Shown here: positions 10,569-33,299 of the stretch, piece by piece
Position numbering within the stretch: position 1 is the first letter of the stretch
Layout: the number at the start of each line of letters is the position of its first letter
Assembly: GCA_001275005.1 (NCBI GenBank)
Contig: JWZX01001549.1
Span: 1 to 33,299 of the forward strand
Source: Chrysochromulina tobinii
Taxonomy: Eukaryota
Direction of reading: 5' to 3'
Length of the DNA stretch: 33,299 bases
Notes under the pieces: model-generated
What the model was told of the DNA's origin: nothing
Databases searched by the model: none
Seen by the model: only the letters and a program-made list of their open reading frames with translations
Made by a program: the position numbers and the translations under genes

Positions 10569-10766
10569 CCTCCAAAGGGCCTCAAGGCCAACATCGGCCG
10601 CTCGTTCATCGTCATGGATGAGAGTACGCTCGAAGGATGCGCACAGCCGACCGAGTTCAAGAACCTGCTCTTCGGCCTGTGCTTCTTCATCGCGGCCATT
10701 CACGAGCGGCGTCAGTACGGCGCGATCGGCTGGAACATCGCGTACCAGTGGATGACCTCCGACCTC
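10569..10766 (+). pseudogene. Dynein heavy chain fragment immediately upstream (in the protein) of the minus-strand fragment, inverted
   Basis: PPKGLKANIGRSF...FKNLLFGLCFFIAAIHERRQYGAIGWNIAYQWMTSDL matches the dynein pattern EPPxGLKAN...LxFFHAxxxERRxxGxxGWNxxYxFxxSDL. Confidence 0.9.
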
Positions 10767-10786
10767 ACTTACCGCGTATTGTACGA

Positions 10787-11506
10787 CTACACGCGCCCAG
10801 CCAGCTTCGCTTCGATGATTTGCCTGAGCTCCTCGCGCTCGCGCAGGCTGTCTAGCTTGGCGCGCGCCTGCTCGAGCGCCGCCTCGATCTGCTCGCGGTC
10901 GCTCGCGCTGGTGGCCTCGCCCTCGGGGTCTCCCTCAGCCTCGCGCCTGAGCGCCTCAAGCACGGCACGCGTCGCGTCGGGCGGGATCTCGACGCCGCGC
11001 TCGCTCAGGAACAGCTTGAGCTGCGTCGTGGTCAGATGCTTCGCCTTCATGCCGCTGCTGTTCGAGGCGCGCAAGGCGCGCGAGGGCGCCGTCGCTGGCT
11101 TCGGCTCGGGCGCTGATGCGGCCGCTGCCGCCGCTGCCGCCGCTGCCTCGAGCAGCAATGCCTGCTCGACAGCCTGCTTCTCGGCGTCCGCCTGGCGTCG
11201 GTGCTCCTCGACGCGCTCGCTGAATTTCATCTCCAGTTTGCTCGCACGCACTGTCGATGGTGAGGCAGGCTCTGCTGGCCCATTTGGTGCAGGTACCGGT
11301 GGTGGAGCTTCTGCCAGCTCGTTAGGTGCAGGTGCAGACGACGGAATCTCTGCTGGCTGGTTAGGTGGAGGTGCCAGCGGTGGAGCCACTGCTGGCGGCT
11401 CGGCTGCGGCCGTTGGCTGCTGAGCGTCCGGCTCGGGTGCCTTGGCGACGGGGCTGGTGAACTCATCCGGCTCGGGCGGTCGCGTGCCGCTGTGACAGCA
11501 TCCCAT
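10787..11506 (-). CDS. Hypothetical protein (239 aa): N-terminal MGCCHS acylation motif, Pro/Ala linker, coiled coils, short helix-extension-helix-like motif
   Basis: MGCCHSG start; charged helical segments; LTTTQLKLFLSERGVEIPPDATRAVLEAL resembles SAP/LEM/Ish1-type motifs. Confidence 0.7.
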   Translation of the reverse strand: MGCCHSGTRPPEPDEFTSPVAKAPEPDAQQPTAAAEPPAVAPPLAPPPNQPAEIPSSAPAPNELAEAPPPVPAPNGPAEPASPSTVRASKLEMKFSERVEEHRRQADAEKQAVEQALLLEAAAAAAAAAASAPEPKPATAPSRALRASNSSGMKAKHLTTTQLKLFLSERGVEIPPDATRAVLEALRREAEGDPEGEATSASDREQIEAALEQARAKLDSLREREELRQIIEAKLAGRV

Positions 11507-15762: not shown

Positions 15763-16186
15763 CTATGTTGGACAGGAGGCGCCAGAAAGCAAGGGTCAAC
15801 ACGCGTCGGAGTTGCCGCGACTGAACTTCACAGCGACATGGAAACACGACATGGATCCTGCTTGGATCCCGCTAACGCATGGACGGAGGCATGGCCGAAA
15901 CAACCTTGCACGGCACACACAGACCATTTACATTGTAAAAGCACGCATGATTCAATTGTAAAAGCAAGACGATGTGGCGCGTTTACAATACATGTATCCA
16001 GGCTCGGGGCTAGCCATGCCAGTTGCGCCGCGGCGCGCGCGCGCCCTCCCCACATCTCGCATGGCGGGCACTGGTGGCGGGGGGGGGGGCGTTTGAATTT
16101 GACTTGTCTTGTCTTGACTTGACATGTCGCCCGCTCGCGCGGAAAGAGAGCGTCCCGGCCGCGACCGACGGCCTCGACGCACGCAC
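15763..16186. promoter_or_regulatory. Divergent WASHC4 / ATM-like intergenic region with repeated motifs
   Basis: ATTGTAAAAGCA at 15932 and 15955, inverted TTTACAAT at 15982, G-run near 16079-16089, pentamer array 16097-16124. Confidence 0.5.
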
Positions 16187-19100
16187 ATGTCGTCTCAGGC
16201 GGTGGCACGGCGCGCCAAGCTGGCGGCTGCCGACGAGGCCCAGTCGACGCTCCGCCAGCCCGCCGAGCTCAATCAGCTGGTCGATGAGCTCCAGAACCGG
16301 CTCAAGGAGGGCGGCAAGGAGGGCAAGGTCAAGTCGGCGAACGAGGCACTCAAGGAGCTCGTCGATCTGCTCGTGTCACACAAGTACGCGCGCGCGCACG
16401 GTGCCACGCTGCGCGACAACGCGAGCGCCAGCGCCGGCCGTGTGCCAACTTGGGACAGCGTCCTGAAGTGCACGCTCTTCTGTCTGAGCGTGTCCAAGAA
16501 GCTGCTCAAGGCGTTGGTTGAAAAGCTGCGCCTGCTCCTCGGCAAGGCACTCGAGGCCGGGCCGGGCGCGCTCCGCCCGACGAGTGAACTGCGCGTCTTC
16601 CTGTACGTGTGCCAGGAGCTGACCGACCGCGGCGGCACGGAGGCGCACGCGGCGCCGCGAGCTCCCGCGAAGAATGACGGCAAGTCGGCGCACCCCGATT
16701 GCATCGGCGTGCTCCTCCTCCTCGCGAGCGAGCGGCCGCAGCTGCTCGCACGCCTCTCGCCCCTTAGGCGCAAGCTGCTGCTCAACCAATGCATAGAATG
16801 GATCATTGGAGAGCCGCCTGGCGTCGATGGCGCTGGCGGCGGCGGCGGCGACGGCGCGGACAGCCGCTCAGACGGCATGGGCATAGGCGGTGTTGGTGCC
16901 AGCTCTAGCCGCGCGCCCGCGGGCGGCGGCGGCGGCATCGATCCGAGCGTGGTGGCGACGCCGCAGCTCCTGGTGCAGTATGCCCAGCTGCTCTCTCAAC
17001 TCGTAGGGGCGTGGGGCAGCGATATGGGGGTCCTCGAGAGCACTGGCGGTGGGCTGGAGGCGGGCGACGACGGCCCGTTCGCCCTGCTCACCGGCTTCAT
17101 GAACGACGTTTGCGAGAAGGAGCTGCCGTACCTACGCAAGATGGCCAACCAGCTTTGGTCCGCCACGCTGCATGCTATCCTGTGCCACGGCGCCAACGTG
17201 CTGCACGAGGTGGCGGCGTTTGGGCTGACCCCGTGCGTGCTCGAGCGCGTGCTGCGCGAGTTGCGCGAGGCCGATCGGGGTGGCGCGCTTGCCGAGACCC
17301 TCGCGAGCTTCGCGCGCTGCCAGCTCGCCTGCGTGCGCCTCTGCGGGCTCGCGCTGCCCGTGACGAGCGCACGCCAGCTCTCACATCTCGTCGAGCTCGA
17401 GCTCCGGTCTGCGAGCGCCTTCAAGCAGCCGGCGGCGCTGCTGAGCACCGCAGAGCTGAGCGAGGAGCGATGGCGTGCACGCTCGCTCCTACAGCTCATC
17501 GCCGACGTCCTCGCACTCCACCGGCCGCCGCCCAGCGCTGCCGCCGCGAGCGCCGCCGCGAGCGCCGCCGCGGGCGTGGCCGCCGCGGGCGCTACCGGGG
17601 CGGGGGCGTCCAAGCGGCAGCGCACCTCGGCGAGCGTGCCGCTGAGCACGCTGCTTCTCGAGGCGGTCCGTGCGCCCGGTAGCCCTGAGGAGTACGGGCG
17701 CTGGCTGCTCCTGATCGGATGCCTCGCTGAGCGCCATCCGGGCGCCCTCACGCCCTCAGTGCGCACGGCGCTCGTCGAGGCGCTCACGGCGGAGCTGCCG
17801 GTGGCGGACGGCTCGGTGGGTGGCGGCTGGGGGCGCCTGCCGCTCCTCGCGTGGGCGCTTGCCGGCCTCGCGCTGCTCGAGCCGCCGGGCGCAAGTGCGC
17901 CGCGCTGGGTGAGCCTCTGGCGCAGCTTACACGCACTCGTCGCTCTGTACGAGCCGGGCACGCGCACTCTCTACGCGGGCGGCGGCGACGGCGGCGCGGG
18001 TGGCGCGTCGGGCGGCGCAGGCGGCAGCGGCGGTAGTGCTGCTGGCGGCGCCGGCGGTGGTGGGGCGGCGGGAAGTACGGAGCGTCTGTGCTTCGTCGAC
18101 CTGGGCGCGCGCTGCTTGCGCGTGATGCTCGAGCGGGGACTTCTCCCTCCCTCTGAGGCCGCCGCCCAAGCCGCCTCCGTGATCCACTCATCGCCCCTCT
18201 TCGCGCCATTGGCCGTGCGCACCGCGGGAGATGCCACCGCGGCGGCGGCTGAGGGTCGCGCCTACCTTCGCTCGATGGTGGAGCTGAGCGCCGTGCTCGT
18301 CAGCGCAGCCGAGCGAGGCGTTCGCGCGGTAGACGAGGGAGCGGCGGCCGGTGGCGGCCGCGGCGGCGGCGGCGGCGGCGGGGCTTTCGACCGTCGGCGA
18401 CTGGTGCGCTGGCTGACGGAGCGCATGTACTGGGCGCCGGTGCAGCCAGCTTTCGAGGCCACATCTCCCTGGCGATGCGCGCTGCAGCTGCGTGCGACGC
18501 GGGCCGCGTGGGCAGCGGGCGCCGAGCACCTTCTGCTCCGGCGCGTCTGGTGTGCTGTCGTCACCGGTCATGGTGGCGGCGGCGCGGCGGTGGGCGGCAC
18601 GCTGCTCGGTGTGCCCGCTATCTCGCCCGGGGCGTGCGCTCTGCCCGTGACGTGGCTCGAGCGACCGTATAGCTCGGGGAGCGAAGGGTATGATCCTCTG
18701 CTCGGCGCCGCATCGGACGCGAGCTGGCGCCCCTCCGACCAGGCCGCCGGAGTGGCCGCCGCGCCGCCGTGCCCGCCGCGGCTGCTGCGCCGCCTCGTGC
18801 CGCTGGCAACGGCAGCGGGCGGCGGCCCGGTGGGCGCGGTGGACGAGGGCTGCGAGGAGGAAGAGGGCGAGTGGGACGAGGGCGGCGGTGGGAGCATCGA
18901 GGGTGTGCCGATGGGGCTGCTCCACCTCGAGGCCTTCCTACGCCACGTCGAGGCTCTCTCATCCAACCCCGCCCCCGCCGCCGCCGCCGGTTGCGCTGCG
19001 GATGGTGGCGGCGGCGGAGGCGGTGGCGGAGGCGGCATTGCGCTCGGGGCCCTCGGTGCGTACGCGAGCTCCGCGTCCCTGCTGGGTGTGGCTACGTACG

Positions 19101-22100
19101 AGGAGGAGCGGGCCGCGGGGCGCGTGAATGGGTCGCTCTCTCACGCGCCGGATGAAGGCACCGATGAGTGCGCCACAATGCCTGAGATCACGCTCGGGTT
19201 GCTCAAGGAGGCGAGCAAGCGGCTGGTGGCGGCTGCACCCTCGGAAGCCGCCTCGCCCGCCGACCCGGGGGCGCTGCGCACGATCATGCACGGGCTGCGT
19301 CTCGTCGAGTTCGCAGCGGCACTCATGCTCGCCACGGGGCCGCGACGCGCGCCAGAGGGCTGCATAAAGCTGCTGCAGAAGCAGCTGCGTAAGGTGGCGT
19401 CCTGGCTGCGGTGTACGCTGCCGCACGCGGGGCCTGATGCGTCACGAGCAGAGATGCTTGCCAAGGTTAAGGGGTGGGCCCGCGCCTCGCGCACGCTCCT
19501 CGCGTTACGCTCATGCCTCGCCATGTTCGCGGCACTCGCGGCTGACACTCGCGGCGGCACGCAGCGCGGATGGCATGTGGTGGTGGCGCCCTCATGGCCC
19601 GAACCTCTCTACGTCGCCATGGCCTCTGAACCTCAGACCCTCGTCCACGGCGTCAAGCTGCTCTGCATCGCGCGACAGGCGCAGCAAGCGGCGCGAGCTG
19701 AGGCCGCCGCCGCGGGCGGCGGCGGCGGCGGCGGCGGCATCGGCATCGGCGGCACAACAGCGGCTGCGGAGGCGATGGACGTTGACGAGTTCGAGCTGCA
19801 AGTGCCGAGCGAAGCTGCGAACGCGAGCGCCACCGCCTCTGGGGCTGCTACCTCGACTTTGCGCGAGGAGGGCGGCGGTGGCGGCGCCACTAGCGCGGCA
19901 GAAGAGGCGGAGGTGGGCGCGGCGCTGCATGCCATCCTCAGCTGCCTCGACCTGTGGGCGCTCGGCTTCGGCTCGGTCAGCGAGCGAGTACTCGTGGCGC
20001 TCCCAGCCGCGCTCGAGGGGCTCAGTGCGGCCGCGCTGCGCACTAAGCTGCTCGCGCTTCGCACGCTAGCCACATGCATGCGGGCCACCCCCACGCTCAC
20101 CCAAGCTCGGCGTGCGTGGCCTGCCGCGGTTTCGCCGAACCCAGCCACCGCGCCCGCCGTCGGGGGGCTTCTCGGGGATATGGACGTGGGCGGCAGCACG
20201 GTGGTGCGCAACCTGCCCGCGCCCGTGGCGGCTCTGCTCGAACCTTGGCTCTTGGTGGCTGACTCAGCCCTCTTCGGCGACGTGACACGTCGGCTGAGTC
20301 ACGCGAAGAAGCACGCAGCCAAGCTTGAGCTGCCGAAGCCCGAGTGTAGGGAACAGACAGCGGATGTGGAGGCTAAGATCGCCGCGGCCGCCGCCTCGTG
20401 CGACGGGGCCCTCCGGCGCGCGCTAGCGGTGCTCTGCCGCTTTGCACGCGCCGCGCCTGCCACGCTGCCGGCAGGCGGGAGTGCGTGCGAGCTCCGCGCG
20501 TACAACAAGCTTTGGACGATGTCGCTCGGGGTGGCAAAGGAGCGTGGCGACTTTCGCACCATCGTGCGCGACCGTAAGCGCATGCTGCCGCTCACGCCGG
20601 CGGCGCGGCTCGCGCTCGTCGAGGCGCTGCATGCACACGTTGAGATGATGGAGCGGCTGCATGCAAGTGCCAAGGCCGCGGCGATGGAACGGCTGCATGC
20701 GAGCGCTTTGGCCGCGAGCAGTCGCCGTCCTAGCGAATCCACACCGCTGCTGCTCGACGGGCAGACAGTTGATGACGTGGGCGAGAAGTATGAGGAAGAC
20801 CTCTTCGACGCGCTGTATGACACGCAGTGGGCGGTGCGCCAGTGGGTCGTGCGAGCGCTCGGCGTGCTCGCCCCCACGTTCGAGCCCGAGGATCATCGAA
20901 CCTTCCTGCTTCCCAAGGCACTTGGCCCCCTCTTCGGCGTGCCCGAGAGCGCCCCGGCCGAGGCGAGCTTTGGCGTGCCGTGCTTCGCCTTCGTCGGCCT
21001 CAAGCGCGGCGGCGGCGCCAACGGCCTGCTCGCGAGCCCGTGGGGGGGCCACGGGCTTGCGGGTGCGGGCGGCGGCGGTGGTGGGGCCCTGGGCGGGGTG
21101 CCGACGAGCGCGCACGTGCCCTCGCCGTACGTGTCGCCGGCTTTTGAGGTACGTCTGACGGCGCTGCACGCCCTCGCCGCCCTCGGAGCTAGCTCGGCGA
21201 GCTGCACCGACCAGTCGCTGCTCCTCCTCCTGCTCGCGCACGGGCCCGACCCCGCCCGCGCCGCTGCCGCCGCCGCCGCTGCCGCCGCCGCCGCTGCGGC
21301 TGCCGGCAACGAGACGCCGCCGCCACGCGCAGCCCTTCGTCTAGCGGCGGACGCGGCTCTGCGCAGCATGGGGGCGGCAAGTGGGCTGGCACCGTGGCGG
21401 ATGCTGCGCCAACGGGGTCAGCAGCTGCTCGCTCTCTGGCTCCAGTTAAAGCTGCCGCTGCAGCGACTGCCGTGCACTCTCTTCAAGGCCACGCCAGCGC
21501 ACGGCACGGCCGCTGCCCTCACCTCGAGCGTCGGCGCCGCCAACGCGCCCTCCTCCTCGGGAGCCTCCGTCGCTGCTGAGGCGGATGCGAGCGCCGATCG
21601 CGACCTCGCCGCCTTTGTCGCTTCAAGCCGCATCCCTCTCGCGACAGCGGCAGCGATGGCCTCCAACGGCGAGGTCCTCACGACCGCCGCACGTGCGCTC
21701 GGGCTCGCGGGTGGTGCACCCGACCTTTTGCTCGAGGCGCTGCCGCAGGTGCTCGCTCGCCTGCTTCCCATGAAGAATGGGGCGGCTGACGAGCGCCAGA
21801 CGTACACCTTCTCGCTCGACTTTGTATGTAGCATCCTCGCACCACAGCCGCTGCACGCGTGCGCGCAGCCGCAGATGAGCGCTTTGCTCTCTTCCATCGT
21901 CCTGTGCGCCTCGGCCGAGCGCCCCCCAAGCCCACCGCAGCGCACCGTGGCCGAGATTATCGAGGTGCTCATCGCGCCGCCCGACCCGCGCGCCGCCGTC
22001 TCTCGACGACCCCTCGTCGAGTCGCTGCGTTCGCTGCCACCGGTGGCGATGCATGCCCTTGTCCTCACGGTTCGTGGCGCGATCGCGGCGGGCGAGGCGT

Positions 22101-25100
22101 CGCTCGGAGCCCTCGAGGTACTGCTGAGCGAAGCCCTCCTCTCGCCTCAGCAGCTGGGTGCCGGATGCACGCCCCACTTGCTGCAGGCTGGGCTGCTCGC
22201 CCCCGCCCACGCCGCCCTCAACCGCACCACCCTCGCACTCTGCGTGCCGCCTGCCGCCGCCGCCGCCGGCAGCAGCGCCGCGGCCGACCCGGCCGACGCG
22301 GCTGCCGCCTCAGAGAACGCGAAGGTGGATGAGCTGTCGCACGCGTGCGAGCTGCTGCGTCGGCTGCACGCGCGGCTGGGCGCCTTGGCGTCTGTGCGGG
22401 CGGCGCTGCTACCCGCGCTGCTCCGAGCGCTCGTGCCTCTGGCGGCACGCTCGGCTGCGGCCCAGGCGACGCTCGGTGAGGTGCTCCAGCACGATGTCTT
22501 CGCGACAGCCGTGGGCGGGGCCCAAAACCAAGGGGTAGGCTTGGGTGCGCGCGAGGGAGCGAGCGGCAGCCTGGGGGCCAGCCTCGAGGCCTCGTGGACC
22601 GACCCGATCGGATCGTCGGATCGGTTGCATGCCGCACTCGCCAAGCTGCCCCCGTACGAGCTGGTCACCTCGGCCAGCACGCGTGGGCTGCAGGAGCTGC
22701 AGGCGCGCCTGCTGGTCGCTCGAGCCCGCGCGGCGGACGAGGCTTCGAGCGAACGCCTTTCGGCTGCGGCGCAGCTGCTGGCATGCGAGGCAGGCGCACC
22801 CGCCCACGCCCTTGGAGGCTACCCCGCCGTCCGATTGCAAACCGCACGGCCGGTTGCCGAGGCGGCGGCGGCGGGCGGGTGCGGCGAGGCGGTGGCGGGT
22901 GCGGCGGCAGGCATGGTGCTCAGCGGCGTGAGCGAGCGCGGCGCACCTCGCTCGGAGCTCGAAGCGCGGGCTGCAGTGACCAAGGCAATCCTCATCCTCG
23001 GCTCGCCTGAAGCGCTCGAGTGCCCGACGCTCAGCGCGTGGCTCGAGGGTGGAGACGAGGTCGCTGATGAGGGCTACGGCGCCCTCGACCTGCGTGCTCT
23101 ACGGGCCGGCAGCGCGCGCGCGGCGGCGGCAGCAAGGCGCGCCGAGGCTTCGAGAGCGGCGGCTGCCCTCGATGACGAGAGCGCTCTGCACGACGGTGGC
23201 GAGGCATGGTGCCCGTGGAACGACCGAGCGCCGCTGCAGGGCATGGGGCCAGCTCGTGGGGGCCTTGACTCCCAGTCGAGGCTACAGTCCCTTAGGCGAG
23301 CACGCCGCTCGCCTATGGAGCGCACGCGGCGCTGGCTGCTGCGGCTTGCCTCAGCGCCGGGCCTCTCGTCGGCCTTACGAGAGCTCATCAGCCAAGCGCT
23401 CAGCCTGTGTGCCACCCTACCGCCGCCGCGTGCGCTTCTCGAGCCGCTCGCCTCGGACGTGCCACTTCCGCCCTCACAGCTCACCGACTGCGCGGACGAG
23501 GAGGAGGCACTCGGAGCGGCAAGGTCGGCCGCAGAGGCCGCGGGCGCAGCTGACGGGGAGGGCAAGGAGGAGGAGGAGGAGGAGGCCGCCGGCCATGCCC
23601 GGCTGCTGCGCCAGCTCCACGCGGTACTCATCTCGCCGGATGCGCCGCCGCGCCTGTGCGCCCTCGCCGCCCAGAGCCTGTGCCGAGCCTTCGAGTCTGA
23701 CGCGGCGCGCCCGGCGGCCCTGCGCGCGCTCGAGCAGCTGCATCGACAGCCAGCCGCAGCGGCCGCCTACCACCATCTGCTCCCGTATGCCGCGCTTGAG
23801 CAGCTGCGTGCCTCGTTGGCGTCGAGCGGCGCGGCAGATGGCACCGTGAGCGGCGGCGAGAGCGGCGCGAGCAATGCGGCGATGGAGGTTGATGCGGCTG
23901 CGTGGCTCGAGGCGCCGCCGCCCATTGCGTGCGCGCTGGTCTGGGCAATGGGCTCGACGGCGGAGACGCCTGCGTACGATCACGCCGCGTGGCTCTGCGC
24001 AGTAGTCAGTCCTCTGCTCGCCGCCTCAACTGACCCGCTCCTCGCCGGATGCACACCACTCGCGGCCGCCGCGCCCCGATTCGCGGCTTCGATGCTTGAG
24101 GCGGCCGTGCAAGACGTGGCGAGGCAGCCTGCTCACGCGCATGCGCTCGCGAACGCCGTGCACGCTGCCCTCGACCCTCCGGGCCTTGGCGCGATGGCAG
24201 GCGCGAGCGCATGCCCCCCTGCCAAGGCGGCCGCCCTGCTCCGCGTGATCACCTCTCTCCTCCGAAACTCTATACACGCGCCCGCCGCACCCGCCGCCGC
24301 CTCGGCAGCGCTCGAGGCCTTCTGGAGATTGCTCTGCCTCGGTCGGCTGGCCGAGGTGGCAGCGGACCATCAGATGGACGCGACGGCTCTCCTCCTACTC
24401 GAAGCCTCGAAGGCGATCGCCACCGCTACCAGCCCCAGCCACGCCGTCCCTCCTGCTGCCGCCGCCCCTAGCGCCGCGCACGAGGCGCGTGCGCTCGCGG
24501 TGCTGCGGCGTGTGCTGCCCCGCCTCGCGATGCCCGACATGGCGTTGGGGCTGCCGGCAATGGCGACGGAGGCGGCGCTCTCGGCGGGCGCTAGCGGTGG
24601 CGTGGGCGGATTGGTCGGGCTGGGCGGGTTGGTGGGCGCGCGTGGTCCGTGGCTCGTCTCGTCACTCGAACTGAGCCTGGCGGACGTGGGGCTGCGCGCC
24701 CAGCACGGCGCTCAGCACGAGCGGCTACCTGCCGCCCTCGACAGCCTCCATCGGCTGGGCTGCTATGCGCTTGTGCGCGCCGTCAGCTCGGCACGGCTGC
24801 CAATGGCGCCGCCCGCGTTGAGGGTGGCACCGGCGCCGCAGCCTGCGGGTTGGGGTGTGGGCGATTGGCAATCGGTGGCGGAGGGGCAGGCGGAGATGGC
24901 ATGGCGCCTTGGCGAGTGGACGGACGTGCGCGTGCCCACAGGGTCGGGCGTTGCTTTTGACGACGAGGAGATGTGGGAGGCGTCGCTGCCGGGTCTACTC
25001 GACGGCGGCGGCGGCGGCGGCGGCGTGCGCGCGGGTGAGGGCGGCGCCTGCCATGGCGCCTTGGCGAGCGCGCTGCGTTTGCTAGGCCGTCGCGAGGCAG

Positions 25101-28100
25101 GTTCCTTCGCTGCACTCAAACGCACCGTTGGCGGTGCGCAGCAGTCGCTGCTGGCACAGATGGTCAGCCTGCCCCCCGAGGCGAGCGGAGCGCTCGAGGG
25201 AGCGCTCCGACAGCTCCGGCTGTGCGGCACGCTGCGCGAGGGCGCGGGTGGCCTCGCATCCGAGGTGAGCATGACCGATGGGATGAGCACGCCCTGGCTG
25301 CTCCCTTTCGCGCTGGTGGCCGCCGCCCGGCAAGCCCTTGGCGGCGGCACATCGACGCAGGGGATGGCCGACACGCTCGACAGCATGGCCACCGCGGAAA
25401 GCGCCGGCGGGTACGGCGGGTACGGCGGCGGCTTTGGTGGCGCCTCGGAACGTGCGGCACGCGACGAGTGGCTGCAGTGGCGGCGCAAGCGGCTGTCGCA
25501 GCAGCTGGCGGTGCTGCCGCGCGGCGCTCCACTCGGCGAATACGAGCCGCTCGTGGCGCTGCACGTGGCGATGCTGCGGCACATGCAGCCGCACGGCTCG
25601 CGTGCCGAGCAACTTGAGCTTCTAGTCAGCGCCGGCCAGCGAGCGCGCGCCGACGGCCACCAAGCTGGCGCGCATGCCCTGCTTCGGCGGGCGGCTGAGC
25701 TCGCCTCGGCCATCGGCGGGAGCGGCAGCGCCGTTGGCGCTCCGCTCGCGTCGCAAGCGCCGTACGCATCCTGCTCGCAGCAGCTTGAGTCGGAGGGCGA
25801 GGGCTCGGTGCAAGGGGCGACGACTCAGAGTGCGCTGCGCTGGCTGCCGGCGACGTGGGCGGGCCGTTGGGAGCACGCGCTCCTGCTGTGGGACGCGGGT
25901 AGTGACGGGCGCACCGACGCCCTGCTGGTGGCCAAGCGGTTGCGTGACGAGCTTCAGGCGGCCATGGACGCAGCCGCTGGGGTGGGCGGACTGTCCTCAG
26001 CACCGAAGGCGAGCGGCGCGGCGGCAGCGGGGGGTACCGGCGGCCGGCCTCTTTCGTCGAGACACGCGACGCTCCACGTGCAGCTGCTTGCAACGCTCGG
26101 AGGCTGGATGGACGCTCTGCGGTGCGAGGGGCTGGGTGCGGTCCAAAAAGAGCTCGACACGGCGGTCTACCTATGTGATGAGCTTGGGGTGCCCGATGAG
26201 AGTGGCGCAGTGGCGGACGCACTTCTCGGGCTGGGCAGCTTCCACGAGCGACAGTTTGGCGCGTTGCAGCGTCAAGCAGATTCGTCCACCTTTGCCAAGC
26301 TCGTGTCAGTGCACGCACGCACCAGGGTTGAGCTGCGACGCGTGCGCAATGAGCTGCTCACGTTGACCGACACGGCAACCAAGGCGATCGCTCACCGTCG
26401 TAACAAGCTCGAGAATCACGCACGCGAGCTGCGTTTCGCGCTTGACGCGCTCGAGAAGGACTCGCTCGCCACCGTCGACCGGCGTTCCGAGCATCTCCTC
26501 GGCGCGATGGAGAACTACCTTCTGTGCCTGCGCCGCGCGCCTGAGGGCTCGTCGGCCTCCCGCGCGGCCGCCACGGCCGTCTGTCGCCTCTGGATGCGCA
26601 ACCGCGAGGTCCAGCCGCTCTCAGAGAAGGTGCTTGCCTTCTTCGGTGCTCATGGGCAAGGTGCCGCGCCCGCGCTCTCCCGCCCCTTTTTGCCGCTTGC
26701 TTTCCAGCTGTGCGCGCGGCTGAGCACTGCGGCGGACGCGGCGGACGCAATCGACCCACTCTCATGTGAGGAGAGCTTCTCGCAGCCGTCACAGGCATAC
26801 GATCTGCTCGACGAGGGCTCGTACGCGGCGCCCTCAACAGCGGGTGATGTGGGCGTGGCTGAGGCCGAGAAGCCCAACGATGTGCTGGCGGCGGCTGCGT
26901 TCCAGAGAGCACTGCGCACGATGCTCCTCCAGCTGAGCGAGCACGACGTCGATCGCGTCATCATCCACCAACTCATCGTGGCCGCCGAGCCTGCCGGCGC
27001 CGCTGCCGGTACTCACGATGTAGGCGCCTCACAGCAAGCGGCGGCGTCGCTGCTCCAGAAGCTGCGTGAGCGTCGACCGGCCGAGGTGGAGGCATCCATC
27101 GCCCTCGTCGGTGCCCTCCGCCGCCTCGCTTGCTGTCAGGCTCGCGCCGGCGGATGCGGCGACGAGACCCCAGCCAGCCCGCGCGCATCGTACGTTGCCA
27201 TCGCAGACGCGCTCGGCGCGGTAGGCGCCGTGGCGGGTGGCGGATCTGCACCCGACCTGAGCCGCCTGCATGACCACCTCGACATGCGCCGCGTGCCACT
27301 ACGTGTACCCCTCACTCCGGCTGGTAGCGAGGGCGGCGAGCCGGCCCTGATGGTGCGCTACCTGCCGCACTTTATACCTGTTGCCTCGGGCCGGCCGCAT
27401 GCACTCACGGGCGGGGACGGGCCAACGGCGCCGTCTTGGGCGCGCTCCAAGCTCGTCTGGTGCGAAGACGAGGCGGGCGTGCGCCATGCCCAACTGCTGC
27501 GCGCGCGCCCCGCCGGCTCTCTCGATCCTCGGCGGGATGCGCTCGGTTGGCAGGTGTTCGAGGAGCTCTCTCGGCGGCTGGAGGCGGATCCTGCCGCGCG
27601 AGCCCGTGCGCTTCGGCTACGCGCCCCGCGAGTGCTCCCCCTCGCCCCGTCCGCTGGGTTGTATGAGTGGCGCTCGCACTGCCGCTCGATGCACGCGTAT
27701 CTGGCCGACGAGCACGCACGGGCCTATGCCGAGGGGCGCGATCGGATGAAGCTGGTCGAATGCGAAGCAGCCATGCGCGCCGCGCGTGCCGCCGACGCTT
27801 TTAATGCCGCCGCCGCCGACAATGTCGTAGTCGACGACGACGCTTACGCGCAGCCTGCACTCGGCCGCCGCCCCTTGACCGTCGACGCGACGGGTTGCGG
27901 GGGCGCGGGCGCGGACGGCGCCGGCGCCGAGGCGGGCCCAGCGGTGCTTGCGGCATGGACCCGCGTGACGGCGGCCCTGACGCCACAGCTACATCGCTTC
28001 CTGCTCGGCAGCTCTCCCTCGGCTGAGGTTTGGCTCGCGCGGCGTGCGGCGCTCACGCGCTCGGCGGCGGGGGCGTCGGTAGGCGGCTGGCTGCTAGGGC

Positions 28101-28669
28101 TCGGCGATCGCGCACCGCACCGGATGCTCCTCGACAGTGCCACCTCTGAGCTCGTCCACGTTCACATGCAGCCCCTCCTCCTCCAACGAGCTGCGTGCGA
28201 TGGCGCAGACAGTGGGGCGGCTCAGGGTGGCGGCGGCGTGAGCGAGGGCGCGCGCGCGCCGCCGCTGATGCCCTTTCGGCTGACACGCGAGCTCGTGGAC
28301 GCTTTCGGGCTCGGCGGCGTCGAGGGTCCCTTCCGAGCGTCCGCTGATGCGACCCTCCGGCTGGCGCAGGGTGAGGCGTGCACGGCGGCGATCCTCACAC
28401 TCCTCGAGGCCTTCGTTGACGAGCCGATGCGCGGATGGGCCGCCGCCTCCGAGGGCGCCGCCGTGCCGTGGGCCCACGACATGGCTGCCGCCCGTGCCGC
28501 GCGGCTCGATGCTGAGGTGGCGGTGCTCCACGCGCAGCGCCGGCTGGGCGGCAAGCAGGGAGCGGCCGCTCCACTGAGCGTCGAGAGCCGCGTGCGTCAG
28601 CTCATCAGCCTCGCCACCAAGGAGGGGACGCTCGCTGCGCAGCCTATTGGCTGGCAGCCGTGGCTGTGA
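16124..28669 (+). CDS. ATM: ATM/Tel1-lineage PIKK (TAN-like N-terminus, solenoid, FAT, kinase-like, FATC) with degenerate active site; start 16124 or 16187
   Basis: One 4181-codon ORF. ATM-type motifs: PTWDSVL, AMENYLLCL, FLPLAFQLCARL, QLLR...DPRRDALGWQVF, RVLPLAPSAGLYEW, LTRSAAGASVGGWLLGLGDR, PFRLTRELVDAFGLGGVEGPFR, FATC LSVESRVRQLISLAT...GWQPWL. Confidence 0.88.
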   Translation: MSPARAERERPGRDRRPRRTHMSSQAVARRAKLAAADEAQSTLRQPAELNQLVDELQNRLKEGGKEGKVKSANEALKELVDLLVSHKYARAHGATLRDNASASAGRVPTWDSVLKCTLFCLSVSKKLLKALVEKLRLLLGKALEAGPGALRPTSELRVFLYVCQELTDRGGTEAHAAPRAPAKNDGKSAHPDCIGVLLLLASERPQLLARLSPLRRKLLLNQCIEWIIGEPPGVDGAGGGGGDGADSRSDGMGIGGVGASSSRAPAGGGGGIDPSVVATPQLLVQYAQLLSQLVGAWGSDMGVLESTGGGLEAGDDGPFALLTGFMNDVCEKELPYLRKMANQLWSATLHAILCHGANVLHEVAAFGLTPCVLERVLRELREADRGGALAETLASFARCQLACVRLCGLALPVTSARQLSHLVELELRSASAFKQPAALLSTAELSEERWRARSLLQLIADVLALHRPPPSAAAASAAASAAAGVAAAGATGAGASKRQRTSASVPLSTLLLEAVRAPGSPEEYGRWLLLIGCLAERHPGALTPSVRTALVEALTAELPVADGSVGGGWGRLPLLAWALAGLALLEPPGASAPRWVSLWRSLHALVALYEPGTRTLYAGGGDGGAGGASGGAGGSGGSAAGGAGGGGAAGSTERLCFVDLGARCLRVMLERGLLPPSEAAAQAASVIHSSPLFAPLAVRTAGDATAAAAEGRAYLRSMVELSAVLVSAAERGVRAVDEGAAAGGGRGGGGGGGAFDRRRLVRWLTERMYWAPVQPAFEATSPWRCALQLRATRAAWAAGAEHLLLRRVWCAVVTGHGGGGAAVGGTLLGVPAISPGACALPVTWLERPYSSGSEGYDPLLGAASDASWRPSDQAAGVAAAPPCPPRLLRRLVPLATAAGGGPVGAVDEGCEEEEGEWDEGGGGSIEGVPMGLLHLEAFLRHVEALSSNPAPAAAAGCAADGGGGGGGGGGGIALGALGAYASSASLLGVATYEEERAAGRVNGSLSHAPDEGTDECATMPEITLGLLKEASKRLVAAAPSEAASPADPGALRTIMHGLRLVEFAAALMLATGPRRAPEGCIKLLQKQLRKVASWLRCTLPHAGPDASRAEMLAKVKGWARASRTLLALRSCLAMFAALAADTRGGTQRGWHVVVAPSWPEPLYVAMASEPQTLVHGVKLLCIARQAQQAARAEAAAAGGGGGGGGIGIGGTTAAAEAMDVDEFELQVPSEAANASATASGAATSTLREEGGGGGATSAAEEAEVGAALHAILSCLDLWALGFGSVSERVLVALPAALEGLSAAALRTKLLALRTLATCMRATPTLTQARRAWPAAVSPNPATAPAVGGLLGDMDVGGSTVVRNLPAPVAALLEPWLLVADSALFGDVTRRLSHAKKHAAKLELPKPECREQTADVEAKIAAAAASCDGALRRALAVLCRFARAAPATLPAGGSACELRAYNKLWTMSLGVAKERGDFRTIVRDRKRMLPLTPAARLALVEALHAHVEMMERLHASAKAAAMERLHASALAASSRRPSESTPLLLDGQTVDDVGEKYEEDLFDALYDTQWAVRQWVVRALGVLAPTFEPEDHRTFLLPKALGPLFGVPESAPAEASFGVPCFAFVGLKRGGGANGLLASPWGGHGLAGAGGGGGGALGGVPTSAHVPSPYVSPAFEVRLTALHALAALGASSASCTDQSLLLLLLAHGPDPARAAAAAAAAAAAAAAAGNETPPPRAALRLAADAALRSMGAASGLAPWRMLRQRGQQLLALWLQLKLPLQRLPCTLFKATPAHGTAAALTSSVGAANAPSSSGASVAAEADASADRDLAAFVASSRIPLATAAAMASNGEVLTTAARALGLAGGAPDLLLEALPQVLARLLPMKNGAADERQTYTFSLDFVCSILAPQPLHACAQPQMSALLSSIVLCASAERPPSPPQRTVAEIIEVLIAPPDPRAAVSRRPLVESLRSLPPVAMHALVLTVRGAIAAGEASLGALEVLLSEALLSPQQLGAGCTPHLLQAGLLAPAHAALNRTTLALCVPPAAAAAGSSAAADPADAAAASENAKVDELSHACELLRRLHARLGALASVRAALLPALLRALVPLAARSAAAQATLGEVLQHDVFATAVGGAQNQGVGLGAREGASGSLGASLEASWTDPIGSSDRLHAALAKLPPYELVTSASTRGLQELQARLLVARARAADEASSERLSAAAQLLACEAGAPAHALGGYPAVRLQTARPVAEAAAAGGCGEAVAGAAAGMVLSGVSERGAPRSELEARAAVTKAILILGSPEALECPTLSAWLEGGDEVADEGYGALDLRALRAGSARAAAAARRAEASRAAAALDDESALHDGGEAWCPWNDRAPLQGMGPARGGLDSQSRLQSLRRARRSPMERTRRWLLRLASAPGLSSALRELISQALSLCATLPPPRALLEPLASDVPLPPSQLTDCADEEEALGAARSAAEAAGAADGEGKEEEEEEAAGHARLLRQLHAVLISPDAPPRLCALAAQSLCRAFESDAARPAALRALEQLHRQPAAAAAYHHLLPYAALEQLRASLASSGAADGTVSGGESGASNAAMEVDAAAWLEAPPPIACALVWAMGSTAETPAYDHAAWLCAVVSPLLAASTDPLLAGCTPLAAAAPRFAASMLEAAVQDVARQPAHAHALANAVHAALDPPGLGAMAGASACPPAKAAALLRVITSLLRNSIHAPAAPAAASAALEAFWRLLCLGRLAEVAADHQMDATALLLLEASKAIATATSPSHAVPPAAAAPSAAHEARALAVLRRVLPRLAMPDMALGLPAMATEAALSAGASGGVGGLVGLGGLVGARGPWLVSSLELSLADVGLRAQHGAQHERLPAALDSLHRLGCYALVRAVSSARLPMAPPALRVAPAPQPAGWGVGDWQSVAEGQAEMAWRLGEWTDVRVPTGSGVAFDDEEMWEASLPGLLDGGGGGGGVRAGEGGACHGALASALRLLGRREAGSFAALKRTVGGAQQSLLAQMVSLPPEASGALEGALRQLRLCGTLREGAGGLASEVSMTDGMSTPWLLPFALVAAARQALGGGTSTQGMADTLDSMATAESAGGYGGYGGGFGGASERAARDEWLQWRRKRLSQQLAVLPRGAPLGEYEPLVALHVAMLRHMQPHGSRAEQLELLVSAGQRARADGHQAGAHALLRRAAELASAIGGSGSAVGAPLASQAPYASCSQQLESEGEGSVQGATTQSALRWLPATWAGRWEHALLLWDAGSDGRTDALLVAKRLRDELQAAMDAAAGVGGLSSAPKASGAAAAGGTGGRPLSSRHATLHVQLLATLGGWMDALRCEGLGAVQKELDTAVYLCDELGVPDESGAVADALLGLGSFHERQFGALQRQADSSTFAKLVSVHARTRVELRRVRNELLTLTDTATKAIAHRRNKLENHARELRFALDALEKDSLATVDRRSEHLLGAMENYLLCLRRAPEGSSASRAAATAVCRLWMRNREVQPLSEKVLAFFGAHGQGAAPALSRPFLPLAFQLCARLSTAADAADAIDPLSCEESFSQPSQAYDLLDEGSYAAPSTAGDVGVAEAEKPNDVLAAAAFQRALRTMLLQLSEHDVDRVIIHQLIVAAEPAGAAAGTHDVGASQQAAASLLQKLRERRPAEVEASIALVGALRRLACCQARAGGCGDETPASPRASYVAIADALGAVGAVAGGGSAPDLSRLHDHLDMRRVPLRVPLTPAGSEGGEPALMVRYLPHFIPVASGRPHALTGGDGPTAPSWARSKLVWCEDEAGVRHAQLLRARPAGSLDPRRDALGWQVFEELSRRLEADPAARARALRLRAPRVLPLAPSAGLYEWRSHCRSMHAYLADEHARAYAEGRDRMKLVECEAAMRAARAADAFNAAAADNVVVDDDAYAQPALGRRPLTVDATGCGGAGADGAGAEAGPAVLAAWTRVTAALTPQLHRFLLGSSPSAEVWLARRAALTRSAAGASVGGWLLGLGDRAPHRMLLDSATSELVHVHMQPLLLQRAACDGADSGAAQGGGGVSEGARAPPLMPFRLTRELVDAFGLGGVEGPFRASADATLRLAQGEACTAAILTLLEAFVDEPMRGWAAASEGAAVPWAHDMAAARAARLDAEVAVLHAQRRLGGKQGAAAPLSVESRVRQLISLATKEGTLAAQPIGWQPWL

Positions 28670-29009
28670 GGATGTGTAGGGGAGGACTCAAAGGATCCGT
28701 CGTCGGCAGGTCGTGGCCGCGGCTGCGGGGATCGACTGGCAGGAGCTCGGCTGAGTTCCGCTGGTGAGCAACACGTACAACTGGTCAACGGGAGCACTGT
28801 TCATAAACAGTCGTCGTTGCATGCGTCCATCTCGAACGCGTACCTTTAAACGGTGGTCTAGCGCGGGTTAGGGTCAGTGAGGTTCTCGGTGGAGTAATTA
28901 GAAATTTACTTTTGTACTGATGGCGATTGCATGCACGATGCAGAACGGGGGGTTTTCAATTTTGGGTCGAGTTTGGTTTCCGTTACGTCTCGTCTTGTCA
29001 CGTTTTTCC

Positions 29010-30704
29010 ATGGGCTCCATTGCTGATGCTTTCGCCACCGCTGATTTCGCCAATGCCGCCGCGGCTGTGGGAGCGGCGGCTGAGGGCGCAGCCGGTGACG
29101 GAAAGAAGTCGCTGGCGAGCCTAAGCCTGCACGCCTTCCTCGAACATTTCCGCCTCGAAGGCCTCACAGAGGCTCTCGTCGACATCGGGATTACGCGGCC
29201 GATGGACACGCGCATCCTGACGCGCGCGGACCTTCGCTTGCTTGGAATCGCCCATGCACACATGGCAAACAGCGTGTGGCATCGGCTGCAGTACGCGCTG
29301 CAGAGGACCTTTGGCGCAGACTACGATTGTGCGGCGGCGGCAGTGGAGGCGGAGGCGGAGGTGGTGAGCGCGTCCGACAAGCGCACGCTGGACAAGGCTT
29401 CCGAATGGAGTACCACCTCCTCCTTGCGCGGCCGTGGCAGCTTCGAGCGTGGGGCTAGCAATGCCGCCGCTGATTACGCACGTGCTCGCACGTATGGCTC
29501 GTATGATCGCCAGTGCGAGCTCGAGCTGCGCCGCTTACTACAGGGGGGGGCTAGGCGGCGTAACGACGTTTCCGCGCTCACATCGCCGGGGCGGAAGGGT
29601 GCACGCAGCTTCATGCTCAGCCAGGGCAGCAGCCGCTCAGACGCGCCGACACGATCATCGAGGCGTCTGAGGGGCGAGTCACCCTCCTCGTCACTGCCGC
29701 CACCTTCGCCGCCTGCGGTTATATCGGGCACGGCGCGCGTGCATGCTCGGCTCCTCGAGCGCGCAGGAGGGGGCGCGACGAATGCGGTGCACACCCGGGG
29801 GAGCGCCCGTGACGGCGCCAATGGTTACGACGCCTCGCTCACCGCCCGCCCGCATACTATCGCTCACGAAACCGCCAGCGGGCCGCGACCACAAGCCTTG
29901 AAGCCTGTCGAACGCTTCCTGTTGCGCCGGTTAGAGGGTCCGAGGCCTAGCCGAAAGGAGGCGGCACATGCCCCAGCGTGCGGTGCACCGCCCCACCGCC
30001 AGCCTGCCACCACCATGACCGTCGCGGCCATCCTGACCGCCGGCACCCATGCGACGAGCAGTACGATACCCCCCCGTTCCCCCAGGGGCGCCCCGCCTCC
30101 GAGCGCACAAGCGAGCATCAATGGAATACTGCCGCTCAACTCATGTCCTCCTTCCTCTGCAGCCTCGGCTTGTGGAGCTTCAGCCTACGACACCTCCGAA
30201 CATGGGGAACATGGCGCGTGGGGCGGCTGTTCTGGTGGCTACAGCTACAGCAGTGGCTGCGGTGGTGGCTGCCATGGCGCTGGCGCCACCCAGGTGCAGC
30301 TGCCCTTCCTCGTGTGCAACTCGGCCGAGGTTTGGGGCCCAATTCAGCGAGGCTCACCCACCGCCATAGCGCGTGTGCACCCAGGCCACGCCCGCGCTAA
30401 ATCGCCGAGCTTGGCAGTGCGACGATGCTGTGCGCCTGTGGTTCCGTCCGTGGAGCTGCTCGACGGGGGTGAGGTGGATGAGGCGTGGGGTCACGTTGAC
30501 GAAGCGTTCGATAGCCTCGCCGGATGGGATCACGAAAGCAGTGACCCGGCCATTGCCTCTGCGATACAGGAGGAGACAGCCCGGTCGCCACGCTCGCCAC
30601 GTTGTAACACGAGGGATGTGCGCTCTTCCCAGCGCCGGCGCTACCCAATCAAAAACCTCCACGCTCGAGCCCCAACGGTGCTGTTCGCGACGCCCGCATT
30701 CTGA
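29010..30704 (+). CDS. Hypothetical protein with N-terminal SAM-like domain and long low-complexity tail (about 564 aa)
   Basis: SLHAFLEHFRLEGLTEALVDIGITRPMDTRILTRADLRLLGI fits the sterile alpha motif pattern. The remainder is unrecognised and could include unspliced intron sequence. Confidence 0.6.
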   Translation: MGSIADAFATADFANAAAAVGAAAEGAAGDGKKSLASLSLHAFLEHFRLEGLTEALVDIGITRPMDTRILTRADLRLLGIAHAHMANSVWHRLQYALQRTFGADYDCAAAAVEAEAEVVSASDKRTLDKASEWSTTSSLRGRGSFERGASNAAADYARARTYGSYDRQCELELRRLLQGGARRRNDVSALTSPGRKGARSFMLSQGSSRSDAPTRSSRRLRGESPSSSLPPPSPPAVISGTARVHARLLERAGGGATNAVHTRGSARDGANGYDASLTARPHTIAHETASGPRPQALKPVERFLLRRLEGPRPSRKEAAHAPACGAPPHRQPATTMTVAAILTAGTHATSSTIPPRSPRGAPPPSAQASINGILPLNSCPPSSAASACGASAYDTSEHGEHGAWGGCSGGYSYSSGCGGGCHGAGATQVQLPFLVCNSAEVWGPIQRGSPTAIARVHPGHARAKSPSLAVRRCCAPVVPSVELLDGGEVDEAWGHVDEAFDSLAGWDHESSDPAIASAIQEETARSPRSPRCNTRDVRSSQRRRYPIKNLHARAPTVLFATPAF

Positions 30705-31254
30705 GGAGTGCGCTCCTGAAGTCTCGTATTCGCTATTCCGTTCTCGAGTGCAGTCAGAAAAAGGCACACGGCTGAGCTGCGATGGCGGAACCGTGAGGCG
30801 AGGCTTATCTGCGGAATGCTTGGGAGTTGGGTACACGCACACGCTGTACACGTGAGAGTCCACATTTATGTATCGCTCGCAACCTAGCAGCTCGGCTAGC
30901 ATTAGCATGCGCTCGGTACGGTACGTTCGGTACCGCTCGTACGAGTTTTCTTTTCCAGAGACTGAAACCCCGAAACTCATCTAATACGCTGTACTCTAAC
31001 CTGACCTAGTCTCCCCTAGACTCTACGCGATGAGTACAATTATTCTACTCACTAAAAAACTTGGGAAGTTGTATTGTCGTGCGTGTGCGGCCACGTACTG
31101 TGATCTGTGTGCACAAGACTCAAGAGTGCCACAGCTGTCCTGTTGAGTTTACCTATTGAGTGTTGTCATAGTACAAGGTGGAGCTCTGCCGCGCTTAACG
31201 TCCTCGCCATCGCTGAAGAACGCGTCCCTATCGAGCATCCTCAGGCAGGCGCCG

Positions 31255-33299
31255 TCACACGTGCACAGTGGCTGCGTGGCTGGCGCTCCCGCGTTCGCTC
31301 AGTGTGGGGGTCCGGCGGATGGCGGCTGGTTGGGAGGAGCCGGCACGCGGGGTGCTCGACACGCCCGCGTGCCGCGGCGGTGTGAACACATCGCCTGGGG
31401 CAAAGGGGGCCGGTCTGCCGGCAGTGGCGCTCATGGTAGTGGTGGTGGTGGCTGTCATGGCAAGGTCGCTGCTGCTGGCCGCTGGAACACTGCATTCCGG
31501 TGGTGGGAGACGATGGGCCTGAGGCATCGTGCTAGTCACGTCGGCACGCGGCAAGCCACGGCGCACAGACGCCCGAGGGAGGTCCACCGATGACCTTCGA
31601 AGCTCAGACCTTCCTCCGTGATAAGAGAGCGTGCGCGGCAGCGGCGAGGGTACATCGGGAGAGCGGAAGGTCGTAGCCGCGGGGCTCCAGCCCGGACTGC
31701 TGCAGAAGGAGTGAAGCTTGGGTGCTGCCTCGGTTGGTGACAGACTCCTGTACGTGAGGAGATGCTCCGTCAACTCGCGGAGCAACGGGAGAGCTCCGGA
31801 AGGCGAAGGTCGCGTGTGTGGCCGAGATGGACCGGCCAGCGCAGCGAGGCGCAGCCGGCAAAGCAACGTGTGTTTGAGACGCTGCGTGGGCGTCGCAGGG
31901 ACAATCCTCAGCACGACAAGCGACCTCCACAAAATCTGCCAGAGGCTCACAGCCGCCTCACGCATCGGTGCTTCGGCTGGCGCCCCGGCTGGCGCTTCAA
32001 GCACCGCGTCTGCCATCGCTCGCCAACGGATGACGAGGTGATGCAGCCGTCGAGCGCGGCGGCTCAACCTCAGCCAATGAGCGCGTACGCGGCGGTACAC
32101 CGAATCGCCGCGCGACCGGCGCAACCGGTGCGCCTCAAGCCACCTGCGCGCGTGCGTCTGAACAACCGACTCTGCGAGCGTGCGCATCTGGGCAAGCTTG
32201 GCCTCTACTGCGCGCCCGCGAACGGCTCGCCTGAGCGCGGCGAGGCGCACTCCCCTCTGCAGGGTGGTCGCCGCCCTCGCCGCCCGCTCCAGGCGTTCCG
32301 CCTCTGACTTGGCGGCGGAATCACGCTTCATCTTGCGCATCTGCAGCGTGCTGCGCACATGGGCCTGCAACCTCGCCGCCGCCCTCGCCGCCGCCGCCTC
32401 TCGCGCCTCCGTGGCAGCATGCGCCCGCTGCCGTGTCCGCTTCGCCAGCCAGGAGCGTGCCCTCGCTTGCAGCGACACTGCCGCCGTCTTCTCCTGCGCC
32501 GCACGCTGCGCCATCTGCGCCTTGCGCTCCTGCTCGATGTTTCGGCGGCGTCGGCGGATTAAGTACCAAAGTAGCATGAAACCGAGTATGGCCAACGTGA
32601 GCAGACCGAAGAAGAGAATGTCAGGAAGCGGCGGCGGCAGCCCGAAAGGGCAGTTCTCGAAGACGAAGCACGAGGGCGGCGAGGGAGCGGGCGACGGTAG
32701 CGCGGGCGGCTGCAGCGTCTGCCGCGTCACCGCACGCGAGAACGGCCCCTCGAGAGCGTCCACGGTGAGCACGGACGTGCCGGTGTAGTGAACCGCGATG
32801 GCGGCAGAGAGGCTTTGGGGGGTCTGTGCCGCCAGCACCTCGACGTAGCTCGTTGCCACGGTACGGTTGGGCGCGAAGACGACGGCTGTGGCACGCACTG
32901 AGGCTGGCTCTATAGTTAAAGTCACCATCGGAGGGGCAGTGCTAGCGCTTTGAAGGTCGCCGACAAGCGCCGCCACTCCTCTTCGAAGGGCAAGCCGCTC
33001 AGGGTCGCCGAATCGCTCGACAGTCAACGACTGGAGCAGCATGACGATATAGACGTCGTAACCTGCGTAAGCACGCCCTGGCGGTGCAGGTGGCCACGAG
33101 GGTGGCGCAGGAGGTGCCGGGAAGGGTGGCGCAGGAGGTGAGGGTGGGGGCGGCGAGGGCGGCGGCGAGGGTGGCGGCGGCAAGGGCGACTGCGAGGGCG
33201 GCGGCGGCGGCGACGGCGGCGACGAGGGCGGCGGCGGTGACGGCGGCGGCGGCGAGGGAGGTGGTTGCGAAGGTGGAGGGGGCGAAGGCGGGGGAGGAC
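31255..33299 (-). CDS. Single-pass membrane protein, 5'-partial: Ser/Pro-rich ectodomain, TM helix, cytosolic IQ motifs
   Basis: Frame is open to the right edge (PPPPSPPPPSQPPPSP...); TM ILFFGLLTLAILGFMLLWYLI followed by RRRRR; IQ-like LQARARSWLAKR, LQAHVRSTLQMR, LQRGVRLAALRR, VQTHARRWLEAHR. Confidence 0.8.
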   Translation of the reverse strand, partial: PPPPSPPPPSQPPPSPPPPSPPPPSSPPSPPPPPSQSPLPPPPSPPPSPPPPSPPAPPFPAPPAPPSWPPAPPGRAYAGYDVYIVMLLQSLTVERFGDPERLALRRGVAALVGDLQSASTAPPMVTLTIEPASVRATAVVFAPNRTVATSYVEVLAAQTPQSLSAAIAVHYTGTSVLTVDALEGPFSRAVTRQTLQPPALPSPAPSPPSCFVFENCPFGLPPPLPDILFFGLLTLAILGFMLLWYLIRRRRRNIEQERKAQMAQRAAQEKTAAVSLQARARSWLAKRTRQRAHAATEAREAAAARAAARLQAHVRSTLQMRKMKRDSAAKSEAERLERAARAATTLQRGVRLAALRRAVRGRAVEAKLAQMRTLAESVVQTHARRWLEAHRLRRSRGDSVYRRVRAHWLRLSRRARRLHHLVIRWRAMADAVLEAPAGAPAEAPMREAAVSLWQILWRSLVVLRIVPATPTQRLKHTLLCRLRLAALAGPSRPHTRPSPSGALPLLRELTEHLLTYRSLSPTEAAPKLHSFCSSPGWSPAATTFRSPDVPSPLPRTLSYHGGRSELRRSSVDLPRASVRRGLPRADVTSTMPQAHRLPPPECSVPAASSSDLAMTATTTTTMSATAGRPAPFAPGDVFTPPRHAGVSSTPRAGSSQPAAIRRTPTLSERGSASHAATVHV
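33080..33299 (-). repeat. Low-complexity (SPPPP)n coding repeat
   Basis: GGC/GAGGGC-rich tract encoding extensin-like Ser-Pro runs on the minus strand. Confidence 0.85.

Follow-up and report, generated by a model that had tools for sequence, protein, structure and literature searches.

The 33,299-nucleotide stretch of Chrysochromulina tobinii DNA analyzed here (contig JWZX01001549.1; hereafter the window) codes on its forward strand, at 16187..28669, for a giant PIKK family protein of 4160 amino acids. Judging from its sequence, it is very probably a real and conserved pseudokinase derived from ATM: the catalytic motifs are lost, the kinase fold is predicted to be kept and the gene evolves under selection. 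This combination makes it a pseudokinase by sequence definition, and we infer that it does not carry out phosphotransfer. As to its role, we give about even odds (roughly 0.5) to the reading that it serves active ATM at DNA double-strand breaks without catalysis of its own, as a partner or scaffold. TRRAP/Tra1 is described as the only inactive PIKK in three papers (PMC5576489, PMC8021618, PMC8625110), and a literature search that left subscription papers outside its range turned up no description of an ATM paralogue that is inactive. An expressed, conserved dead ATM paralogue in globally abundant algae breaks this TRRAP-only rule and shows that catalysis has been lost from a retained PIKK scaffold on more than one occasion. 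In mice, a kinase-dead ATM does more harm than the absence of ATM, and some roles of yeast Tel1 do not depend on its kinase activity. Structural functions of this sort are difficult to study in isolation; in this case, evolution seems to have divided the structural and catalytic functions of ATM between two genes.

Loss of the catalytic residues and its conservation

The gene occupies a stop-free frame of 4183 codons (16118-28669) in a window without any N, and is apparently intronless, with RNA contigs of four runs lying along it and displaying no credible splice joint. The methionine at 16187 is the likely start, because a 93%-identical relative (P0006) begins there. The protein shows the traits of the PIKK family, namely a PI3K-like kinase domain near the C-terminus (27440..28438; Pfam PF00454, E 1e-19), a FAT domain preceding it and a terminal FATC domain (28571..28666; PF02260, E 1.7e-05) that ends in GWQPWL. 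The Pfam FAT domain has no match in the window protein, yet profile alignments to the FAT of ATM are clear. Hence, the uninterrupted 12.5 kb reading frame with a FATC end, as described in an initial annotation of this DNA, is borne out, with the FATC match (24.8 bits) falling just below the Pfam cut-off of 25.3; the FATC domains of the close relatives P0002 and P0019 (25.9-33.8 bits) and of P0038 lie above it.

The same annotation held that the kinase is catalytically dead, pointing to an arginine for the ATP-binding lysine, a catalytic loop without its histidine and asparagine and a replaced metal-binding motif, and we recovered all of these exactly where it had placed them. In the numbering of human ATM, taken from the PDB alignment, the arginine (codon 27500..27502, in QLLR at 27491-27502) stands at K2717, DRAPHR (28106..28123) replaces DRHxxN, and HVHMQ (28157..28171) replaces HIDLG. 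The changes amount to K2717R, D2720L, H2872A, N2875R, D2889H and G2891Q; among K2717, D2870, H2872, N2875 and D2889, the catalytic D2870 is the sole one kept. A DRH-coding sequence in any frame occurs five times in the window, and never between 26374 and 33299, which includes the kinase region. According to PMC4957979, K2717, D2720, D2870, H2872, N2875 and D2889 are, by prediction, ATP- or Mg-binding residues in ATM, and its activity is lost with D2870A/N2875K. The clade alignment further indicates that the GGxNxPK motif at the position of the ATP (P-) loop (27383..27451) is replaced by a variable insertion. The activation loop (28172..28270) begins with a conserved Q-[AP]-[IL]-L-x-Q-R and contains a low-complexity insertion (pLDDT under 50), which makes it 18 residues longer than that of Tel1. 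An AlphaFold2 model of the kinase domain (pLDDT 81.7, pTM 0.84) predicts an intact fold with human ATM as the nearest structural match (Z 32.8), a ranking that says little about lineage, as the model alignment held 59 canonical ATMs, the differences in Z are small and the structural comparison did not extend to chains of more than 3000 residues, such as TRRAP.

A HMMER search of representatives at 50% identity gave 2993 matches; among the best 150 of these, 129 retain DRHxxN, 15 have an altered loop and six are fragments that do not show the loop. The altered-loop representatives together with P0001, P0003 and P0197, omitting the near-copy P0031, provide 17 sequences of a dead clade in which the loop could be tallied. 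As for the question, raised in the initial annotation, of whether relatives share the substitutions, H2872 and D2889 are lost in all 17 and N2875 in 16 (arginine in 12, asparagine kept in one), and D2870 is changed in 15, with glutamate in 14, glutamine in one and aspartate in the remaining two; the copy of Prymnesium parvum has glutamine here. The P-loop motif, Y2755 and D2720 are likewise lost, and the DLG Asp position varies freely between G, H, S, N and K. The dead site nevertheless carries conserved residues of its own, i.e., a Pro-His-Arg in the loop (proline in 16/17, histidine in 14/17; consensus ERxPHR) and a glutamine at G2891, after the lost aspartate, in 17/17. The hinge glutamate is found in 12/12 members, mostly with a tryptophan. 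At K2717, the 13 members covering the position have lysine in nine cases, arginine in three and glutamine in one; hence, the lesion of the family lies in the catalytic loop and DLG, not in the lysine. Thus, the lysine-to-arginine change stands for the window protein and fails as a family trait, and the Gly/Ala insertion of the activation loop is similarly present (18 residues) but of variable length in relatives, where it ranges from about +3 to +64 low-complexity residues.

The named members of the dead clade come from C. tobinii and P. parvum (AB1Y20_017107), the rest being environmental sequences. The one that still has the asparagine, P0082, is an intermediate sequence and branches first in the clade in the kinase-only tree. 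A metagenome scan with a PFRLTR-based pattern returned at least 116 loci, with three of the dead type among those listed (L023, L047 and L062) and the others canonical or unreadable; the pattern requires V-D and is unable to match the canonical ATMs of Prymnesiales, which have L-E-D at this point. Over 5030 nucleotides, L062 does not differ from the window, and the two may come from one source. L047 (1-617) is probably a chimera, in which the 3' portion alone of a dead-clade kinase is fused to unrelated sequence. No match was found among the viral contigs searched.

The same lesions recur across some 20 diverged sequences whose frames are open. Long members, with 4160, 3775 and no fewer than 2327 codons, are about 47-50% identical along their length. 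Between the window and L023, 373 kinase codons give a nonsynonymous rate (dN) of 0.42 and a synonymous rate (dS) of 1.23, and thus a dN/dS of about 0.34, from a single DNA pair by simple counting and near saturation. Of the 21 sequencing runs listed, 17 contain the stretch, six of them RNA; the six RNA runs and one DNA run were compared with the window as contigs, which show neither strand nor level. RNA contig X12 covers the arginine codon, and X13, X15 and X17, from three runs, cover both the catalytic loop and the loop at the DLG position, all with 0 differences, so the altered codons are transcribed unchanged in contigs of four libraries. A second genotype (P0181, 1772/1784 residues identical) carries the same three motifs. 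Taken together, the RNA contigs and this genotype argue that the altered codons are not an assembly error.

Affinity to ATM and origin of the paralogue

When a profile of nine dead-clade kinase domains is compared with solved structures, it scores 180 bits against ATM, 148-165 against Tel1 and 154 against ATR, followed by TOR (132-142), SMG1 (102-107), DNA-PKcs (80) and TRRAP/Tra1 (26-42). The whole-length profile finds additional FAT stretches in the PDB for ATM/Tel1 chains only, and none of the chains found at E up to 5 is named TRRAP or Tra1. With hhalign, the alignment of the clade profile to that of 24 canonical ATMs begins at residue 1561 and runs to the end, covering 1747 columns with a probability of 100. 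This part comprises the C-terminal HEAT region and FAT domain (20798..26068), which is colinear with canonical ATM and has ATM-type FAT stretches, and a FAT segment with the FLAP-BE hairpin and the ENYxxCL and FxPL motifs (26069..26722). The latter, which corresponds to an element of the ATM dimer interface, aligns to human ATM 2335-2529 (E 4e-05 for the stretch alone) and is conserved in the dead clade. Further upstream is a helical, HEAT/ARM-like solenoid (16187..20797) conserved within the clade, with 42-56% identity to P0022 in most 150-residue blocks; its first 1000 residues are modeled with low confidence (pLDDT 41.7) and match generic HEAT proteins. The Pfam TAN domain has no match in the dead protein, and none either in the canonical haptophyte ATM P0198. 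Pfam also includes Tra1-type families; neither these nor FRB matched P0001-P0004, P0022 or P0038.

In phylogenetic trees, the dead clade (support 100) falls within ATM (98-99) against ATR and TOR. The trees giving this placement were built from 134 of 154 rows kept, 72 rows and 54 rows; a further tree, of the kinase domain only, has 49 rows. All were made with LG+G4 or FastTree, contain no TRRAP, SMG1 or DNA-PK rows and show a long stem branch. The profile scores and trees together support the placement of the gene in the ATM lineage, independent of TRRAP, in agreement with the initial annotation. The dead clade has ATM/Tel1 as its best match in sequence, profile and structure, and has in common with them the C-terminal HEAT region, FAT, FLAP-BE, kinase fold and FATC. 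It differs from them in the loss of the catalytic loop, DLG, P-loop motif, Y2755 and D2720, in its faster evolution, in its coexistence with an active ATM and, for the protein considered here, in being about 900 residues longer than P0198. TRRAP/Tra1, the scaffold of SAGA and NuA4/TIP60, is likewise a giant PIKK with a kinase fold, FATC and an activation-loop insertion but no catalytic set; the dead clade is distinguished by its separate origin from ATM and its restriction, as far as seen, to haptophytes.

The metagenome loci and representatives include a clade of canonical ATMs with high GC content. A profile search with this clade recovered 37 proteins, including AB1Y20_011250 of P. parvum, with K, DRHxxN and HIDLG intact, and a Pavlovales protein with the Lys, DRHxxN and DLG Asp. 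P. parvum thus has both this active-type ATM and the dead AB1Y20_017107 under one locus-tag prefix, implying that the dead gene is a paralogue; the active paralogue that the initial annotation had considered is therefore found in this alga. For C. tobinii itself, P0216 (JGI, 62 members) is a candidate canonical ATM by composition and tree position. In the kinase-only tree, the bootstrap of which had not settled, the dead and haptophyte canonical ATMs form one clade (99/90), with the dead clade sister to the Pavlovales sequence (98/91); once outgroups are removed, the dead clade joins the haptophyte ATMs at a support of 60. The dead clade also has 5/15 of the haptophyte-diagnostic columns, versus 1/3, 0/5, 1/28, 0/3, 0/29, 3/14 and 0/2 in seven control groups, a sharing that might be raised by common base composition. 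On the simplest reading of these sequences, ATM was likely duplicated in early haptophytes, with 1.1-1.4 changes per column accruing on the stem branch of the dead clade.

Most prymnesiophyte active-type ATMs (among P0198-P0218) have a hinge glutamine in place of glutamate (LQW for LEW) and have lost ENYxxCL. The hinge glutamate is retained in the dead paralogue and in the Pavlovales ATM, so that the active and dead copies have diverged at complementary positions. A canonical-type ATM (P0089 and L027) carries DHG instead of DLG, and its lysine strand is followed by an insertion. For Emiliania huxleyi, PMC5709506 lists a reciprocal best hit to ATM; PMC3969565, despite having E. huxleyi in its sampling, places the origin of ATM in green plants.

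Possible roles of the dead paralogue

If the protein is a partner or scaffold of active ATM, the following course of events can be envisaged. ATM would have been duplicated in early haptophytes, whereupon one copy lost catalysis and the other stayed active. The dead protein might then pair with active ATM via its retained FAT/FLAP-BE surface and hold or release the PRD helix of its partner. In the ATM dimer, according to PMC7619004, the FLAP-BE hairpin (2377-2476) of one subunit keeps its partner's PRD helix locked in the substrate site, and the corresponding segment is retained in the dead clade. It could also keep the MRN complex on DNA ends independently of kinase activity, as yeast Tel1 is reported to retain MRX at breaks without such activity (PMC4762649). 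The conserved Pro-His-Arg and the glutamine after the lost aspartate may stabilize the cleft or form a binding surface. Kinase-dead ATM in mouse cells is severe without a wild-type copy and not with one (PMC4957979), and the presence of a dead copy beside an active one fits this tolerance. Engineered or cancer-associated kinase-dead ATM and tel1-kd alter the same positions (D2870, N2875 and D2889); however, they are mutants of a single gene, harmful without the wild-type copy, whereas the haptophyte gene is a natural, selected paralogue.

We tentatively propose, as a more specific possibility that we consider doubtful, that active ATM and its dead twin form an obligate kinase-pseudokinase PIKK heterodimer in haptophytes, with the dead FLAP-BE gating the active subunit. 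If true, PIKK pseudokinases would comprise a second family, of independent birth, and the structural and catalytic roles of ATM would have been separated naturally. A possibly comparable mode is seen in the VPS34-VPS15 pair, where a dead kinase is in contact with an active PI3K-superfamily enzyme at its PRD region (PMC7619004); VPS15, unlike dead ATM, is not a paralogue of its partner, and the pairing of dead ATM is putative. A complex prediction with residues 935-1639 of the active P. parvum ATM and residues 800-1090 of the dead FAT segment scored 0.10 against a mark of 0.34 with alignments unused, and we count it neither way.

Several observations weigh against the proposed partnership or the lineage on which it builds. 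The active haptophyte ATMs have altered ENYxxCL beside FLAP-BE and the dead copy keeps it, which suggests that the two may not pair. The first 1560 residues have no significant match among 36 canonical PIKK N-termini, and the dead clade evolves faster (44% kinase identity against 60% for active ATMs in comparable pairs); as the N-terminus is where ATM meets MRN, both features fit a new role as well. Two of the four trees place the dead clade apart from the haptophyte ATMs, and the C. tobinii active copy is a candidate only. Finally, the ESM Atlas neighbors are headed by ATR-like clusters, with a TRRAP-like cluster in third place at 0.92 (a lead only), and the 18-residue activation-loop insertion equals that of yeast Tra1 in length (PMC5576489), although it varies among the relatives.

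The most serious alternative, possible though clearly less probable than the partnership with ATM, is that the dead paralogue has left the ATM pathway to become the platform of another complex in chromatin, transcription or telomeres, as TRRAP did. It would account for the long stem branch, the N-terminal solenoid that is conserved within the clade yet unlike canonical ATM, the new invariant residues of the dead site and, as a lead, the TRRAP-like atlas cluster; it is less easily reconciled with the colinear retention of all the ATM-type C-terminal elements (HEAT, FAT, FLAP-BE and FATC) and the lack of any match to a Tra1-type Pfam family. An improbable one is that nucleotide binding or a weak atypical activity persists, with glutamate as the base and the His-Arg pair in place of Mg. 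There is precedent for basic residues replacing Mg in the pseudokinase STRAD-alpha, and the lysine in 9/13, the hinge glutamate, the acidic residue at D2870 in 16/17 and the strongly conserved His-Arg are in keeping with it. Against this, the DLG Asp is missing in 17/17 with free variation, neither the P-loop motif nor Y2755 or D2720 remains, the lysine is replaced in 4/13 and P. parvum has glutamine at D2870; moreover, ATP binding without catalysis would still make the protein a pseudokinase.

Somewhat less probable again is the proposal that the dead copy is the sole ATM of C. tobinii, leaving S/TQ signaling to ATR and DNA-PKcs. A DNA-PKcs is listed for this alga in PMC8021618, and no canonical ATM was seen for C. 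tobinii, the genome of which was not searched; however, the metagenome pattern is blind to canonical Prymnesiales ATMs, and the trees show canonical ATMs in a crown that parallels the crown of the dead clade. We consider it very improbable that the protein is simply the haptophyte TRRAP/Tra1. The loss of catalytic residues, the large size, the Tra1-like insertion length and the atlas neighbors would suit such an identity, and we take the R-x-P motif of the dead-clade loop to resemble Tra1; they are outweighed by the steep fall in profile score from ATM to TRRAP/Tra1, the absence of TRRAP/Tra1-named chains in the profile search, the alignment of FAT to ATM and the variable insertion. A decaying pseudogene or assembly artefact, to which the low-complexity Gly/Ala tracts, the fast evolution and a 4-nucleotide gap at 26796 in one RNA contig might have pointed, is ruled out by the shared lesions, the RNA identity at the altered codons and the dN/dS.

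Gene model and neighborhood

The gene is easily overlooked, since the public model excises its kinase domain as an intron. This record (KOO33313.1, Ctob_005195, C. tobinii; 666 residues) matches the window protein in two blocks and omits 27086..28369, which holds the entire kinase core. RNA contigs cross the proposed intron donor (X13, X15 and X17) and lie inside the stretch, and no joint was seen, indicating that it is exonic. RNA contigs X13, X14, X15 and X16 end at 28876-28888, delimiting a likely 3' untranslated region (28670..28888); the DNA run goes on, with no RNA cover over 28910-30900 save a 21-nucleotide match, from which it appears that the RNA cover follows the gene. In the region equivalent to 16187-17100 of the window, the 93%-identical relative (P0006 and P0002) is interrupted after about residue 270 by an insertion missing from the window; this is probably an intron, the start and end of which lie, as the translation suggests, in a duplicated stretch.

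Downstream of the ATM-like gene, a 600-codon open reading frame (28902-30704, forward strand) matches no Pfam family and lacks RNA cover in three runs. It is followed on the reverse strand by an open-ended, proline-rich reading frame (31255-33297) with no Pfam match, a likely membrane segment and repeats that we assume to be IQ-like. Upstream, a Pfam match identifies a WASH complex subunit 4 gene (12028-15762, reverse strand), which lies in head-to-head orientation to the ATM-like gene and comes within a few hundred bases of the start of the latter. The remainder of the window (1-11420) harbors ordinary neighbors recognized by Pfam, namely a tubulin-family gene, CGL160-like, guanylate kinase, TMEM43 and DnaJ genes, TFIIIA-like zinc fingers and a fragment of a dynein heavy-chain lid.

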